Source: Actinocatenispora thailandica
GTDB lineage: Bacteria; Actinomycetota; Actinomycetes; Mycobacteriales; Micromonosporaceae
Length of the DNA: 24,000 nt
Assembly (NCBI RefSeq): GCF_016865425.1
Contig: NZ_AP023355.1
Coordinates: 842,198 to 866,197, forward strand
Direction of reading: 5' to 3'
The position numbers and the translations under genes are program-made. The notes under the pieces were generated by a model. It was not told the DNA's origin. It did no database searches and saw only the letters and a list, made by a program, of their open reading frames with translations. This document shows positions 16,255-24,000 of this stretch, piece by piece; position 1 is the stretch's first letter, and every line of letters begins with the position of its first letter.

Positions 16255-16740
16255 GTGGGCGGCTCGTACGGCGCCAACGACTACCTCTTCGACCCCATCC
16301 TCGAATTCTTCCGCGAGGTCGAGGAGTGGGTGCCCGGTGTGCTCGGGGACGTCCTGCGGTGGTTGATCGAGATCCCCGCCGGCTCCGAGCACGGGCTGGC
16401 CGACGTCGGCGACTCCCGCACCAAGGCCGGCGACACCCTGATGAACGCGCTGCAGGACCAGTCGGTCCCGGCCGCGACGATCTACGAGAAGTACGTCGGC
16501 GACGGCGCGCCGGCCGCGTTCGCCGGCCGCGACGGGGATCTGCGCGACCAGTTGCAGTCGATCGCCCAGCAGCAGTACGACAAGGCCAAGATCGCCTACA
16601 ACACCTCCAGCAGCATGGAGATGTCGAAGTTCATGGCCGCCACCGACCTGTACATGTTGGGGCAGGCCATCTACGCGGCGATCATGACGGCGGTCTCGTT
16701 GCCGCCGTTCGGCGGGCTGCTCAGCATCGGCGAGGTCGGC
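16255..16740 (+). other. N-terminal WXG100-like/T7S-targeting-type helical domain of the giant protein
   Basis: YEKYVGDGAPAAFAGRDGDLRDQLQSIAQQQYDKAK (Y-x-G-x-x-A-x-A-F at 16492-16521) occupies the position of the WxG turn between two predicted helices. A hydrophobic helix-like stretch follows (LYMLGQAIYAAIMTAVSLPPFGGLL). The assignment rests on this pattern only. Confidence 0.45.
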
Positions 16741-22700: not shown

Positions 22701-24000
22701 CTCGCCCGACGCGACGTACCTGGCGCAGGACGGTTCGTTCGGGGGCGGGCCCGCCGAAGCCGGCACGGTTCAGAGCGCCGCGCCGCCCCGACCGGCCGGC
22801 GAGTACACCAACGGCCGGTGGGAGCTGATCGACGCCGACGGGGTGCACCCGGGCTACGACGTGCACGCCGATTTCGACAACGCGCGCGCTGCCGCCCACG
22901 AGCGGGCCGGCGGTACCGGGGAGTACGCGCCGCGCAAGGTGCGGCTGTCGGACACCGACGGGCACCAGCCGCTGACCCGGGTGGACGCCGACAACCCGTA
23001 TGGCGGCGACCACGCGGCCGGGCTGGCCGAGGGCGTCACCCAGCGCGGCGCCGCGGCCGCCCCGGAACGTACCGGGCCGACCGGCGCGCAGGAGGGTCGG
23101 CCGGACTCCGGCGAGTCGGGTGGGCCGGAGTCGTCCGGCGCCGAGACCGGCCGGCGGGAGAGCGCGGCCGACGCCGCCGACCGCTGGCGGCAGCGGTACG
23201 AGGCCGACCGGCAGGCTCGGCTGGAACTGGTCCGGGACACCGTCGAGGCGCGGCCCGAGGTCGTCGAGCTGCGGCAGGAGCAGGCCGAGCACCAGCAGAC
23301 CGAGCGGGAGCTGCGTGGCGAGGCGGCGGACCGCCGGGCCGACGAGGCCGACCTGCGGGAGCGCGCGGTCGAGCAGCGCCAGCAGGCCCGGCAGCACGCG
23401 GCCGACGCGCGCACCCACGAGGCCGACGATCCGCGCCGGGCCGAGCTGCGGGAACGGGCCGAGCAGGCGTCCCGGGACGCGCAGGACCTGACCGCCGAGG
23501 CCGACCGGGCGCGCACCGACGCCGACCGGCTGGAGCGGGCTGCCGACCAGGCGGCGACCCGCGCCGAGGGGGTCGAGGCGCGGATCGACCGGATCACCGA
23601 GACCGCGATCGCCGCCGACGAGCAGCTCGACCGGTTCGCGAACGACGCTGGCGAGCAGGGCCAGCCGATCGACCCGCAGCAGGGCCCGCAGGACTCCCAG
23701 TTGACCGGCTCCGATGAGCCGCCGTCGGTGCGCGCCACCCGACCGTACGGCCGGCCCGACGAGGTGGGTGGGGTCGGCTACAAGCCTCCGTCGGAGACCG
23801 AGCAGCGGGCGCTGGAGGAGGCGCTGCGCAACGCCTACGGGGAGATCGGACGGGCACCGGAGCCACAGTCCGGGTGGCTGCGCCGGCTACTCGGGCCCGG
23901 CGACGGGAACTGTGTCGACCGCTGGCTGTCGCTGTTCGACACCTACCTGCATGGTCGGCCGACGATGGCCGCGGAGCCCGTCTACACCGGCTACCGCGGC
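16255..24000 (+). CDS. Giant modular polymorphic-toxin-like protein (3' partial, >2582 aa): WXG-like N-domain, K/G/A-rich region, disordered QGD region, two deaminase-type modules, coiled-coil stalk, papain-like Cys domain start
   Basis: This gene is not in the supplied track. Frame 1 on the + strand was read codon by codon from GTG 16255 (in-frame TAG at 16249, RBS GGAGAGGAGG) to 24000 with no stop. G/C sits at nearly all third positions. The product contains internally paralogous modules and catalytic-type motifs (see the sub-features). Confidence 0.9.
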   Translation, partial: MGGSYGANDYLFDPILEFFREVEEWVPGVLGDVLRWLIEIPAGSEHGLADVGDSRTKAGDTLMNALQDQSVPAATIYEKYVGDGAPAAFAGRDGDLRDQLQSIAQQQYDKAKIAYNTSSSMEMSKFMAATDLYMLGQAIYAAIMTAVSLPPFGGLLSIGEVGGAMAAAEAGIKKALAEFLEKILGEDAVKKISEQGLKKAVTNPSVLGHLATAPIKVIPTLGKEAVEHAPDLYKFGKNAVKDLGPKIKSSVPKIVDHMPSKGDIGHYIANGARKSGDALKYAARHPIETVGRGARAGGREVWDGVKATGRGLGRGAKTAWGGAKSAGRFAWDSRGGLKPSNLAARHAANHAAERYASRTAAREALNAGKGFKEAMRASVREQAENAAARSAARTEARNAFLKEYGERGLAGKAGMLGKEFGKDALMKGKNFAAFTLKTQGVVDAYQVATGHISVGDGLKNLWNQESGALVTGVLGAPLSFGRQGMLPEISGMVGGTVAFDAASAYSFKDHQFHWVDEQGHEKSGGFGAFWGQEKHNAVHAAAYGAMGGAQHMRLKAEEFTAQQDLATDRPTTAFTSRTGSPDVRTPESRTTAPEATRTSTQGSGSQVRGDGGGPRTRSSTQESNGPSQRERTRSGEPSESRGSESGDNGSREAPERRTVVRPRQPEPATGRQDPSQGSSAENPTHRVAQRPEQAAGDPQHAGGGPGRGSEAPDQPRQHEQGTNQPHEAGQGDSQRGDDGRPHEGQSGDDGRQGDNQQGDGRQGDGQSGDHRQGDDQRQPDGQQGDGTRHGDQQTEHRSSEDRTQRRIRLGSADPDAHTQHRTLGEDLDLLDRGLANRKELVDVDMAEVVRHAAAGEAAPTVRVGGRLHEVPELTRLRDTLVEHFTVEGPHGERVPMGDDAAIREHLRELQDQVRAELNEVRTADPATHSTEQTRDAAGFPTESTDRRPSYQSHPTDGNRYSRSDLDAQPDPSRATDREAARDESQKFADDVLTEHTRRWLLDPSGETVGAQPTRGATLVAPEGVFHSTGWEGRTGEAPEPGVAPSVHDVVQELTYTPPAEVAEVQRRGAELRDATAELDLTNSRYEAVNEGIRGLEDRIAAKHQEIADLRAEKQRTIGRGYDGQRIRAANEAYDARIRQAGEDLRAMQDEHRVRARQDLARAARDRAIATVRHENAERQYARAEKRADRRHAPDGLLRHLPSNASQAEIAVMSDYARHVERQIDPATVVADEARYGQEDFQRQALGDDYAAVRADAQRDAGGDPAGVRERMADATREAHQRRVLGDGYDSLRAKAEQGGRDAATVEDRMARHTHVAEKLADVRVHAYEIGGDRHGEISHPDPVTERSLERAGIDHDRLADVLDGALLADPEHPNRIVLGRAGSELREFGEQVPDHPDHLVIVAERGPNGLRFDGRDLSHAELVKVLRDVGLPRPDQRIVLVTSDGGSVARDLAREFRTEVYALPEHATLAGDGTFGVERRAGGEEVPAGDGWRLHEPYGTSTEADLHREYQDARAEAHERGWEGYEQRETRHEPSQRPDRDQRPIRLAGNGQSDLHRDLSEEGTGRLKTLSNARIIDRVVGDLGLDRHRPLRLDEQRVAEILKTEVDERDDPARRRLQQIVEQEFTHLDADGNRTPNSTTEIRQRIAELRAEARQEYADARAAGDTRAGTPEYGDRLEQVGGSGGEGHGYTRSEPPSRHRDPNSPADRADARARAVKFADDVLYADLRAFAEHPDDPPARPSMATVIMSPDGTLHFSTSRTGVAGDGVPAGTHPLIAADYHLVEHQLTGHGNGEAEFWVGDANHGGSPVWFKEWSQRNPELAELAKQHDAALDRRQGVLDSLRKLPASAPEQARTRLTELATQRETEAGQIDRALQEKAAEQGKQQELADYKRFKSLYDAERPDEAGRRQEWLNRRLEIAERYTPGRGHGRCSEVSGLSDHAKRLDREYDQLGRRDAARVEHAKESVQRRNLGELYDRLKGSGATDQELARHSYVAERLREISITAHQIGGTFQVEHGEYRAPCTSCEHAERNLGIVPDHLREIADRVALGEPNKLVLAEPGTDLARYAANIPRHPDAFVLVAHGEPNALTFDGYRLNPREVHDLLVQAGWRPDQRIVLLGCRGGEVRYDWPGSFGAELHNETGVPVVVSPDATYLAQDGSFGGGPAEAGTVQSAAPPRPAGEYTNGRWELIDADGVHPGYDVHADFDNARAAAHERAGGTGEYAPRKVRLSDTDGHQPLTRVDADNPYGGDHAAGLAEGVTQRGAAAAPERTGPTGAQEGRPDSGESGGPESSGAETGRRESAADAADRWRQRYEADRQARLELVRDTVEARPEVVELRQEQAEHQQTERELRGEAADRRADEADLRERAVEQRQQARQHAADARTHEADDPRRAELRERAEQASRDAQDLTAEADRARTDADRLERAADQAATRAEGVEARIDRITETAIAADEQLDRFANDAGEQGQPIDPQQGPQDSQLTGSDEPPSVRATRPYGRPDEVGGVGYKPPSETEQRALEEALRNAYGEIGRAPEPQSGWLRRLLGPGDGNCVDRWLSLFDTYLHGRPTMAAEPVYTGYRG
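18391..18642 (+). repeat. In-frame degenerate Q/G/D/R repeat tract (…GQGDSQRGDDGRPHEGQSGDDGRQGDNQQGDGRQGDGQSGDHRQGDDQRQPDGQQGDGTRHGDQQ…)
   Basis: Iterated cagggcgac / ggcgacgac units of 9-15 nt. The tract sits inside a ~700-nt S/T/R/E/G/P-rich, presumably disordered segment (~17950-18660). Confidence 0.8.
18667..20880 (+). other. Giant protein module 1: R-R-I-R-L linker, helical segment, degenerate YwqJ-like deaminase fold with coiled-coil insert, alpha/beta-like domain
   Basis: Aligns with module 2: KFADDVL at 19210 vs 21403, and GATLVAPEGVFHSTG vs ATVIMSPDGTLHFSTS. The zinc/catalytic positions differ, however: SQAEIAVMSD (19870-19878) replaces RCSEVSGLSD, and SHPDPVTE (20269-20286) replaces APCTSCEH. 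It ends with the domain PNRIVLGR...HLVIVAERGPNGLRFDGRDLSHAELVKVL...RIVLVTSDGG (20371-20700). Confidence 0.6.
20881..22932 (+). other. Giant protein module 2: R-P-I-R-L linker, helical segment, YwqJ-like deaminase fold with intact CxE/PCxxC and coiled-coil insert, alpha/beta-like domain
   Basis: ATVIMSPDGTLHFSTSRTG....GTHPLI (from ~21484), then a ~130-aa insert with a heptad-like segment (21706-22020). After that come GRCSEVSGLSD (Cys 22048-22050, Glu 22054-22056) and APCTSCEH (22321-22341), then PNKLVLAEPG...AFVLVAHGEPNALTFDGYRLNPREVHDLL...RIVLLGCRGG (22411-22746). Confidence 0.6.
22933..24000 (+). other. Giant protein module 3 (truncated by window): R-K-V-R-L linker, disordered segment, ~150-aa Arg/Glu/Ala coiled coil, start of papain-like (toxin glutamine-deamidase-type) Cys domain
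   Basis: The coiled-coil-type sequence ELRQEQAEHQQTERELRGEAADRRADEADLRERAVEQRQQARQ...RIDRITETAIAADEQLDRF spans ~23180-23650. Then LLGPGDGNCVDRWLSLFDTYLHGRP, with the N-C dipeptide at 23908-23913, resembles the catalytic-Cys helix start of papain-fold toxin domains. The domain is cut at 24000. Confidence 0.4.

Follow-up and report, generated by a model that had tools for sequence, protein, structure and literature searches.

A giant plus-strand gene of Actinocatenispora thailandica, probably encoding a multi-effector toxin-like protein with a WXG100/CpnT-like head, and its antisense shadow ORF

Based on five independent lines of evidence, namely composition, family matches, an N-terminal protein family, cross-species similarity and selection, we assign the coding strand of positions 16255-24000 of the window (the whole 24-kb stretch of DNA analysed) to the plus strand, in agreement with the original prediction, with GTG 16255 as the start codon. 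The region is probably the 5' end of one very long gene for a giant multi-effector toxin-like protein with a WXG100/CpnT-like head. The long minus-strand ORF opposite it is a passive shadow.

The first 2582 codons of the gene (16255..24000, +) lie in the window and run past its end. As had been claimed, plus frame 1 is open from GTG 16255: the nearest stop before it is at 16249, and none occurs between 16252 and 24000. The other plus frames of the window carry 70-83 stops per 24 kb. The start signals are also as described, read directly as a Shine-Dalgarno-like GGAGAGGAGG (16239..16248, +; 6 nt from its last base to the GTG start), TAG at 16249-16251, CCG and then GTG 16255, the first start codon after the TAG. 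Alignments to homologues begin at residues 7-12 of the product, leaving no room for a later start. The per-frame GC check suggested earlier agrees that third positions are mostly G/C, with GC1/2/3 of 0.765/0.505/0.932 over 16255-24000 and GC3 of 0.895-0.975 in all 600-nt blocks. Neighbouring genes share this pattern (e.g. 0.752/0.466/0.925 at 12547-14097), and only plus frame 1 has the GC1 > GC2 << GC3 order typical of this genome's genes.

The plus translation is 100% identical to a 2941-aa NCBI protein (P0001) of Actinocatenispora thailandica (Micromonosporaceae). The strand problem originates in the ORF track, which, as suspected, leaves out ORFs running off either source end. The concern that calling the wrong strand would hide the gene is realistic in one respect, as the gene caller of the contig collection placed antisense ORFs inside the gene, among them one of 2237 aa that terminates on the complement of CTA at window position 23887; the public annotation does not hide it, since NCBI already annotates the plus strand. 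Comparison with A. comari over 2409 codons of the same gene, in a stretch outside the window, 3.7 kb downstream of it, gave 236/219/667 substitutions at codon positions 1/2/3 and a sense dN/dS of 0.255 (83% amino-acid identity), against an antisense dN/dS of 1.69 (66%) in the same codon boundaries. The plus-strand protein is under purifying selection. Similarity to the gene of an Actinocatenispora MAG (L003) amounts to 241 bits (E 7e-67) in the sense frame, compared with 62 bits in the antisense frame.

Residues 1-205 (16255..16869, +) form a WXG100-like/CpnT-like N-terminal domain, presumed to target the protein for type VII secretion. An exhaustive phmmer search of 1.84 billion proteins placed this domain in a family of 25 representatives of 131-3052 aa, several of them titled WXG100-like or CpnT-like N-terminal domain proteins; 20 of the 25 match PF25547, four PPE, three WXG100 and one a Zeta toxin domain, and all 12 members with a named organism are from Micromonosporaceae. 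The PF25547 match of the plus product itself is sub-threshold (E 0.03), and the domain has weak profile matches to EsxA structures. In the family alignment, YVG at residues 80-82 stands in for the WxG of the family, and a hydrophobic stretch, also evident from hydropathy, is conserved at residues 126-161. A second conserved, Gly/Ala-rich region at residues 343-553 (17281..17913, +), found by phmmer and BLASTP, is common to a subset of the family (P0004, P0005, P0010 and P0023). It is followed by a linker of low-complexity composition, probably disordered, at residues 560-830 (17932..18744, +), with only 0-4 hydrophobic residues per 100 aa in residues 601-800 and a degenerate 15-nt (5-codon) tandem repeat at 18441-18612 according to Tandem Repeats Finder.

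The paralogous modules and catalytic-type motifs first noticed in the translation are both present. In BLASTP, residues 871-1542 align with residues 1612-2247 at 28% identity (E 7e-39). Both modules have ~700 aa and consist of a YwqJ-type deaminase fold, split by a coiled coil, and a His/Cys alpha/beta domain behind it. Module B (residues 1560-2260; 20932..23034, +), which is 32% identical over 741 alignment columns to P0010 of an Actinocatenispora MAG (E 1.5e-68), comprises a helical region and a YwqJ-like deaminase in split form, together with an alpha/beta domain whose His and Cys are conserved. Its deaminase core (PF14431; residues 1716-2045; 21400..22389, +) carries C1932-S-E1934 and P2023-C-T-S-C2027, identical to the motifs of the stand-alone YwqJ deaminase at 8906-9622, and is broken in two places, by a ~130-aa coiled-coil insert and by another, shorter insert. 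PF14431 scores 22.6 bits on the native module (E 1.3e-4), under the cut-off of 25.9, and 41.4 bits (E 2e-10; profile positions 16-131 of 138) after in-silico removal of both inserts. Module A (residues 871-1542; 18865..20880, +) has no match to the YwqJ profile; alignment with module B places QAE for CSE, an Asp and a Thr for the PCxxC Cys pair, and, in the alpha/beta domain, Glu for His and Ser for Cys. As judged from these motifs, module A is degenerate and module B has intact YwqJ-type deaminase motifs.

The alpha/beta domain of module B (22393..22809, +), delineated by a four-copy alignment and an AlphaFold model (pLDDT 68.9, pTM 0.66), places His2084 (VAHG) and Cys2122 (LLGC) each at the end of a predicted beta-strand. 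It has no significant fold match in the PDB (best PIGK, E 0.17) and no significant profile match, and we regard it as an unproven candidate for a processing cysteine peptidase. Beyond module B, a coiled coil precedes a Tox-PL1/Gln_amidase papain-fold domain (PF15644, E 9.7e-14, 52.9 bits against a cut-off of 24.1). This domain spans residues 2552-2681 of the full protein and is cut by the window end, its first 31 residues (23908..24000, +) including the N-C signature (GNCVD). A PP2C phosphatase domain and further uncharacterised sequence follow beyond the window, and the A. comari ortholog has a second, sub-threshold Tox-PL1-like stretch. Of the 6,274 residues covered, most have no recognisable domain.

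The gene is directly preceded by a 384-aa gene without Pfam match (15013-16167, +) and, before it, a YbaB-like gene (14576-15013, +), as determined from gene calls and Pfam. In all three homologous loci (L002-L004), YbaB and then a Pfam-less gene likewise stand ahead of the large WXG100-like gene, although these second genes encode only 113-123 aa, and a comparison with the 384-aa protein turned up no sequence similarity. Further upstream are conserved accessory genes, among which Pfam and NCBIfam identify a beta-helix plus AAA+ ATPase of the EccA/SpoVK/CbbX type (10748-12430, -), with a counterpart of 65% identity in L004, and an SseB-like protein (12562-14100, +), next to which gene calls place a 123-aa protein (14097-14468, +). 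The window also holds the toxin/immunity cassettes WHH+SUKH-1, SUKH-3 and YwqJ-deaminase+SUKH-3. The 24 kb contain no EccB/C/D or mycosin gene. The link to type VII secretion rests on relatives, in which homologues of the giant gene are syntenic with such genes: L002 of Micromonospora has two WXG100 genes, YbaB, the large protein, SseB, mycosin, EccB, EccD and EccC; L004 has the beta-helix AAA+ ATPase, SseB, YbaB, the large protein, mycosin and two WXG100 genes; and the gene order in L003 is that of the window.

For secretion route, toxicity and polyprotein processing, we infer the following scheme. The N-terminal domain would route the protein into an ESX/type VII secretion system, with the YbaB-like, SseB-like and EccA-like AAA+ neighbours presumably helping export. 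The enzymatic domains would act as toxins in the extracellular space or inside a target cell, possibly by deaminating nucleic acids, by deamidating glutamine or cleaving proteins, and by removing phosphate groups. Separate effectors may be released from the polyprotein by Tox-PL1, and possibly by the His/Cys domain. We know of no precedent for type VII export of a ~1.7 MDa protein.

Alternatively, the gene could be real and its product exported but be no antibacterial or anti-host toxin, and rather a giant cell-envelope or developmental protein, e.g. of the hyphal or spore surface, with enzyme-like domains in regulatory or structural roles. Type VII secretion is tied to development in some actinomycetes, most of the sequence is domain-less and rich in coiled coil and low complexity, catalytic-type residues are lost in one of the two modules, and PP2C is often a signalling domain. 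Nor was a cognate immunity gene identified; none can be assigned, as the sequence covered stops short of the gene's 3' end. Nevertheless, Gln_amidase/Tox-PL1 and YwqJ deaminases are families known from polymorphic toxins, the N-terminal family combines a fixed head with variable tails, one of them a Zeta toxin, as such toxins do, and the locus is rich in SUKH immunity genes and small toxin cassettes. We accordingly give the non-toxin alternative a small probability and favour a toxin-like protein.

Such a protein belongs to an already known class, the giant actinobacterial multi-toxin proteins described by Zhang et al. 2012 (PMC3482391), which carry several toxin domains and include the 13,652-aa SACTE_5178 of Streptomyces sp. 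SirexAA-E. Like that class, it is actinobacterial, exceeds 10,000 residues (by inference here) and intersperses several toxin-type enzymatic domains with domains of peptidase type. It is set apart by description, having a YwqJ-like deaminase, Tox-PL1 and PP2C and an inferred length of ~16,500 aa, above that of SACTE_5178; the lethal-factor-like metallopeptidase, caspase, ART and MCF1-SHE domains of the giant proteins in PMC3482391 were not detected in the residues covered here. With CpnT and the other PF25547 toxins exported with ESX systems it shares a WXG100-like N-terminus and a linker followed by toxin domain(s), as well as the UniRef title 'CpnT-like N-terminal domain-containing' of family members, and its homologues adjoin EccB/C/D, mycosin and WXG100 pairs. 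Micromonosporaceae are without the mycobacterial outer membrane, and a channel role is therefore not implied. CpnT of Mycobacterium tuberculosis, ESX-dependent and with a C-terminal TNT toxin according to passages in PMC8593097 and PMC7810871, differs in being far smaller with one toxin domain. The protein described here has a PF25547 match below threshold and YVG in place of WxG.

Resemblance to LXG/WXG-headed polymorphic toxins such as Bacillus subtilis YwqJ lies in a helical N-terminus that targets type VII secretion, a variable C-terminal toxin part in which YwqJ-family deaminases occur, and SUKH-type immunity genes nearby. Those toxins have a few hundred residues, one toxin domain and a directly adjacent immunity gene, in contrast to the many domains, the deaminase split by a coiled-coil insert and the degenerate paralogous copy described here. 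The likeness to MARTX and large clostridial toxins, multi-effector toxins that an internal cysteine protease domain cleaves, is conceptual only, i.e. an analogy and not membership: several effectors would share one polypeptide with an internal His...Cys pair on adjacent beta-strands as candidate releaser. Secretion route and taxon differ, and neither sequence nor fold comparison matched the protein to peptidase C80 or another clan CD peptidase.

The gene had been predicted to exceed 7.7 kb; its reality is borne out and its size was underestimated, the window part being ~16% of the inferred gene. On extension past 24000, the frame stays open over a 33-N assembly gap and the 3' end lies beyond the sequence covered. 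The open frame in GCA_039527605.1 extends from L001 9995 up to the end of the locus, with no stop in 18.8 kb spanning this gap, which divides the gene into pieces of 2941 and 13,529 aa in one open frame; the A. comari ortholog is open over all 17,294 nt recovered. The full gene probably has ~16,500 codons (~50 kb) in one frame across the gap, an estimate that uses the gene-call table, with the true gap size not given by the 33 N and the in-frame gap a possible coincidence. That a decaying or assembly-inflated locus, i.e. several genes or a pseudogene joined via the N gap and rare stops in high-GC sequence, produced the long frame is very unlikely. The public assembly is indeed gapped within the frame, the first piece carries the label 'partial' at NCBI, the A. 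comari ortholog is split over at least two contigs, and the 3' end is outside the sequence covered; against this stand GC3 above 0.89 all through the window part, the long stop-free stretches in both assemblies compared with the other plus frames, the purifying selection, 2801 identical overlapping bases between two A. comari contigs, and the uninterrupted call of the 13,529-aa piece downstream.

The minus-strand ORF at 14797..23418, correctly singled out as the largest listed (2873 aa), is a passive antisense shadow of the giant gene and not a gene, as had been proposed. It shares codon boundaries with plus frame 1 (23416-16255 = 7161 = 3 x 2387), and the claimed lack of TTA/CTA/TCA codons in 16255-23418 is real, the sole such codon of plus frame 1 in 16255-24000 being CTA 23887, which bounds the antisense open stretch 23889..14799. 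The product is of low complexity as described, with L/V/G/R/A/P accounting for 2157 of 2873 residues (75%), and its GC by codon position (0.932/0.505/0.765) is unlike that of the genes here, its third-position GC being the sense GC1. In the suggested profile search of both translations, the minus translation had no Pfam match at E <= 0.01. That this ORF is a real gene, or a second one overlapping in antisense, with the plus frame as the shadow, is barely credible: it is the longest closed ORF of the window, and in A. comari the same antisense frame is open throughout 17.3 kb (0 stops against 6.7 expected, from a small reference sample), but composition, the missing family match, the antisense dN/dS of 1.69 and the lower antisense similarity to the MAG homologue all oppose it, and it also passes in the same frame through the separate upstream plus-strand gene at 15013-16167 and the intergenic region. 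The antisense frame is open because sense TTA/CTA/TCA are almost unused at 93% third-position G/C. Codon choice in 12 neighbouring genes, together with the amino-acid composition, predicts 2.8 antisense stops in 16255-23418; none was observed (P=0.06), and the length of the shadow ORF is thus close to chance for this codon usage, not above it.

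The giant gene lies on the plus strand. From the TAG at 16249 to base 24000, plus-strand frame 1 runs for 7,752 nt without a further stop, in DNA of 72% G+C whose three plus-strand frames each contain 49-83 stops across the window. The start region reads, 5' to 3', GGAGAGGAGG (16239-16248), TAG, CCG and GTG (16255), i.e. the in-frame stop and the ribosome-binding site of the original prediction are found as described, and GTG 16255 is the first possible start codon. A later start is impossible, as relatives align to the protein from residues 7-12 onward. The G+C content of codon positions 1, 2 and 3 is 0.765, 0.505 and 0.932, matching the other genes of the window, and the third-position value stays between 0.895 and 0.975 in every 600-nt block, in agreement with the earlier observation that third positions are almost all G or C.

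An NCBI protein of Actinocatenispora thailandica (2941 aa) matches the plus-strand translation at 100% identity. With its homologue in an Actinocatenispora MAG (L003), the sense protein aligns at 241 bits (E 7e-67), as against 62 bits for the antisense translation of the same DNA. In addition, a genome scan turned up an ortholog in A. comari, and 2409 aligned codons differ at 236, 219 and 667 sites in codon positions 1, 2 and 3, corresponding to a dN/dS of 0.255 in the sense reading and of 1.69 in the antisense reading with the same codon boundaries. These values refer to 21.4-28.8 kb of L001, the draft locus of the same gene (contig BAAAKF010000023.1, assembly GCA_039527605.1; window position = L001 position + 6254), at least 3.7 kb past the window end. 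The giant gene is under purifying selection. Profile searches with both translations, as originally suggested, gave a Gln_amidase match above cut-off for the plus-strand product and no Pfam match at E <= 0.01 for the minus-strand product. Hence, that the longest listed ORF (14797..23418, minus strand, 2873 aa) is itself the real gene is essentially excluded by the lack of such a match, by the lower antisense score and by the antisense dN/dS. All sequence statements of the original prediction were confirmed, and its interpretation is supported.

The minus-strand ORF is an antisense shadow of the kind predicted. Its codon boundaries are those of plus frame 1 and it meets no sense TTA, CTA or TCA codon between 16255 and 23418, the CTA at 23887 being the only one in 16255-24000, and its upstream extension to 14797 is due to the gene before it (15013-16167), which is in the same frame. 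Six residue types (L, V, G, R, A and P) account for 75% of its product, which fits the low complexity noted earlier. Judging by Leu/Ser content and by how 12 neighbouring genes choose their codons, 16255-23418 should carry 2.8 antisense stops; none is seen (P=0.06), and the shadow ORF calls for no special explanation. Selection holding the antisense frame open was rejected for the window on this P value and on the antisense dN/dS. The real gene is invisible in the ORF track since the tool omits ORFs that run off the source, as had been suspected from the missing in-window stop. The strand puzzle is an artefact of that track, and the public annotation is already correct.

The concern that wrong-strand calling would hide the gene is realistic, since the gene caller of the contig collection recorded minus-strand ORFs of 131, 153, 2237 and 513 aa inside it (L001 10798-11193, 11512-11973, 17633-24346 and 24422-25963; the first two at window 17052-17447 and 17766-18227), which are shadow ORFs of the same kind; the NCBI annotation has the right strand. 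The locus thus exemplifies an annotation trap, in which, at 72% G+C, a gene leaving the contig can have an antisense shadow that is the longest closed ORF. We note that the A. comari ortholog (strain NUM-2625; NZ_BOPO01000052.1 and NZ_BOPO01000075.1) has 0 TTA, CTA or TCA in 5,764 codons, leaving its antisense frame open over the whole 17.3 kb. The codon choice of the A. thailandica neighbour genes predicts about 6.7 (P~0.001, on only 6 reference events), and with an antisense dN/dS of 1.69 a coding reason is disfavoured.

Beyond the window, the frame is open in L001 from 9995 to 28822, the end of the fetched DNA, so that the proposed extension past 24000 confirmed an open frame and did not reach the terminal stop. 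A run of 33 N in the public draft (L001 18823-18855, about window 25077-25109, past the window end), located within an Ala/Arg-rich coiled-coil region, parts the gene into the 'partial' 2941-aa protein, which ends there, and a 13,529-aa piece; the open frame passes through it. Provided that the gap conceals no out-of-frame sequence, the gene would extend from L001 10001 to ~59,551, i.e. ~49.5 kb or ~16,500 codons, with its 3' end ~42 kb past the window end. Such a frame could alternatively be inflated by assembly or belong to a decaying locus. This is unlikely, considering that the frames are uninterrupted in two species, the A. comari ortholog being open over all 17,294 nt recovered (on two contigs that share 2801 identical overlapping bases, both ends running off), and considering the dN/dS of 0.255.

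The protein begins with a putative WXG100-like/CpnT-like N-terminal domain (aa 1-205), assigned through its family. An exhaustive HMMER search of 1.84 billion representatives with aa 1-560 returned only 25 proteins (131-3052 aa, best E 7e-28 by phmmer), several of which carry names such as WXG100-like or CpnT-like N-terminal domain protein. The family is restricted to Micromonosporaceae in all 12 members with an organism given (Actinocatenispora, Micromonospora, Actinoplanes and Solwaraspora). The giant protein itself matches WXG100_2 (PF25547) below threshold (E 0.03, 14.7 bits, cut-off 27); homology to this family is supported transitively, as 20 of the 25 phmmer relatives match it (best E 3.2e-14), with four matching PPE and three WXG100. 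Matches of the family profile to EsxA-type structures are weak (E 0.02). In the family alignment, the W-x-G motif of the turn between the two helices is absent from the giant protein, which has Y-V-G-D-G-A at aa 80-85 where the family consensus is W-S-G-D-G-A, i.e. the Gly and the DGA are retained and Trp is replaced by Tyr; the hydrophobic stretch at aa 126-161 is conserved. Only the first ~200 residues are common to the relatives, up to ~550 in some, including a region at aa 343-553 common to four of them. One relative bears a Zeta toxin domain, and the deaminase module described below is common to a single one, the MAG homologue P0010. A constant N-terminal trafficking domain is accordingly joined to variable C-terminal parts among the relatives, the pattern of polymorphic toxins. 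A low-complexity linker follows at aa 560-830; a degenerate 15-nt tandem repeat (window 18441-18612, ~11 copies) encodes Q-G-D-rich pentapeptides in this probably disordered segment.

Downstream of the linker, modules A (aa 871-1542) and B (aa 1560-2260) are paralogues with 28% identity (E 7e-39), and a further copy of the module is present in P0010 (32% identity over 741 alignment columns, E 1.5e-68). The paralogous modules and catalytic-type motifs first read from the plus-strand product are confirmed. Module B has C1932-S-E and P-C2024-T-S-C2027, which have the form of the zinc-binding [HC]-x-E and P-C-x-x-C signature of YwqJ-like deaminases and are the same as in the stand-alone YwqJ deaminase at 8906-9622. 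Native module B scores 20.7-22.6 bits against YwqJ-deaminase (PF14431, cut-off 25.9); in-silico removal of two inserts, a coiled-coil one of ~130 aa and a shorter one, raises the score to 41.4 bits (E 2e-10, over profile positions 16-131 of 138). Module A has no deaminase profile match. An alpha/beta domain closes each module; in B and P0010, predicted strands of this domain end in a His (VAHG, H2084) and a Cys (LLGC, C2122). In module A every one of these residues is replaced: the Cys of C-S-E by Q, the two Cys of P-C-x-x-C by D and T, and the His and Cys of the alpha/beta domain by E and S. The motif suggests, as a hypothesis, that the His/Cys domain may be a MARTX-like or caspase-like processing peptidase. 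Pfam, a PDB profile search and Foldseek gave no support for a clan CD/C80-type peptidase with a His-Cys dyad (best Foldseek hit PIGK, E 0.17). A structure model of module B (501 aa, from 2 sequences) was too poor for use, with a pLDDT of 47.

A coiled coil (aa ~2300-2470) separates module B from a Gln_amidase (Tox-PL1) domain at aa 2552-2681 (Pfam, E 9.7e-14, 52.9 bits, cut-off 24.1), a recognised toxin domain within which the window ends (aa 2582). Past the window end lies a PP2C domain (E 7e-10), together with long stretches in which there is no recognisable domain. A Pfam scan of the whole window translation gave no match, and the matches came from segments and from the full NCBI protein. 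Polyketide and non-ribosomal peptide synthases, which a gene exceeding 7 kb in a high-GC actinomycete might suggest, were dismissed, with none of their domains found in the Pfam scans. Low-complexity candidates swamp word-index searches: the whole protein returned only itself, aa 1900-2230 of module B returned no match, and the downstream 3287 aa returned a PP2C protein only, missing the 13,529-aa piece.

According to gene calls and profile matches, the window upstream holds a WHH nuclease fused to SUKH-1 (SMI1_KNR4; 6595-7608, minus strand, 337 aa), a SUKH-3 gene (7601-8745, minus strand), the YwqJ deaminase followed by SUKH-3, and genes for an SseB-like protein, a 123-aa protein, YbaB and a 384-aa protein. 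The SUKH-1/SUKH-3 immunity-type genes pair with other small toxin cassettes. A beta-helix AAA+ ATPase (10748-12430, minus strand) is closest to SpoVK/EccA/CbbX, below their cut-offs; its N-terminal right-handed beta-helix takes the place of the usual N-terminal domain of EccA. Gene order in the MAG contig L003 is that of the window. In Micromonospora mangrovi (L002) the order is two WXG100, YbaB, a 123-aa gene, the related large protein (2662 aa), WHH+SUKH-1, SseB, mycosin, EccB, EccD and EccC, and the metagenomic locus L004 holds the beta-helix AAA+ ATPase (65% identity to the window copy), SseB, YbaB, the related large protein, mycosin and two WXG100 genes. Sequence similarity of neighbour genes across related loci is 31-65%. 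The window itself has no EccB, EccC, EccD, mycosin or WXG100 pair and holds accessory-type genes only (the EccA/SpoVK/CbbX-like ATPase, YbaB and the SseB-like gene). Type VII export is proposed since the related large proteins sit in a cassette with ESX genes.

Based on these comparisons, the giant protein is very probably a new, very large multi-toxin protein of actinomycetes with a WXG-type head. We propose that this head would target the protein to an ESX system, assisted by the conserved accessory genes, that the deaminase, papain-fold deamidase/peptidase and PP2C domains may act on a competitor or host, and that internal peptidase-type domains may free the enzymatic domains. [quoted passage not shown] 2012, PMC3482391). 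A fuller version, in which a single type VII polyprotein of ~16,500 codons (~1.7 MDa) carries tandem intact and dead split-deaminase plus His/Cys modules and the His/Cys domain is an undescribed self-processing peptidase cutting out effectors, is unlikely as a whole; if true, the protein would exceed the longest polymorphic toxin of that survey (13,652 aa). That the protein is instead a non-toxin envelope or developmental protein is unlikely. In its favour, most of the sequence is unassigned and a cognate immunity gene was not seen, with the inferred 3' end far past the window; against it stand the Tox-PL1 domain above cut-off and the polymorphic-toxin pattern among the relatives.

The locus adds a very large member to a class known since 2012, namely giant actinobacterial proteins with several toxin domains (Zhang et al. 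2012, PMC3482391). Giant genes outside Omnitrophota come most often from Actinobacteriota (West-Roberts et al., bioRxiv 10.1101/2023.11.21.568195). As gene and strand were already in GenBank and the class had been described, the result is useful rather than surprising. Unusual are the inferred size, the deaminase fold split by a coiled coil and the tandem of intact and degenerate modules; this tandem and the unassigned His/Cys domain offer testable leads. Giant multi-toxin proteins of actinomycetes are little studied, and the position of relatives inside ESX loci raises the question of how a type VII system could handle a megadalton substrate, or whether the protein is cut beforehand. Umbrella toxins were dropped as the closest system, as no domains shared with the giant protein were seen and the papers on them do not mention type VII secretion.

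Two further components of the locus deserve mention. The WHH+SUKH-1 fusion is conserved beside the large WXG100-like gene in three further loci, which belong to different genera (39-56% identity), which is unusually stable for a toxin/immunity cassette, and it may be a fixed part of the system. The plus-strand genes at 847-3027 (726 aa) and 4017-6392 (791 aa) have no Pfam or NCBIfam match; both products align with the same gene of the Micromonospora and of the metagenomic locus (23-29% identity, ~215 aa) and, judging from these alignments, look like paralogues of an uncharacterised conserved cassette component.

Finally, draft contig BAAAKF010000023.1 stops near window position 2000, so that the window stems from a different and more complete assembly, of the same strain or a near-identical one. 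Over 17.7 kb the sole difference between the window and GCA_039527605.1 is one G in a homopolymer at 8670-8676 (L001 2415-2421), where the window has G6 and the draft G7. The tract lies ~23 codons into the minus-strand SUKH-3 gene, so in one of the assemblies the 5' end of this gene is frameshifted or its start differs, and the cause could be either an error in sequencing or phase variation of the tract.
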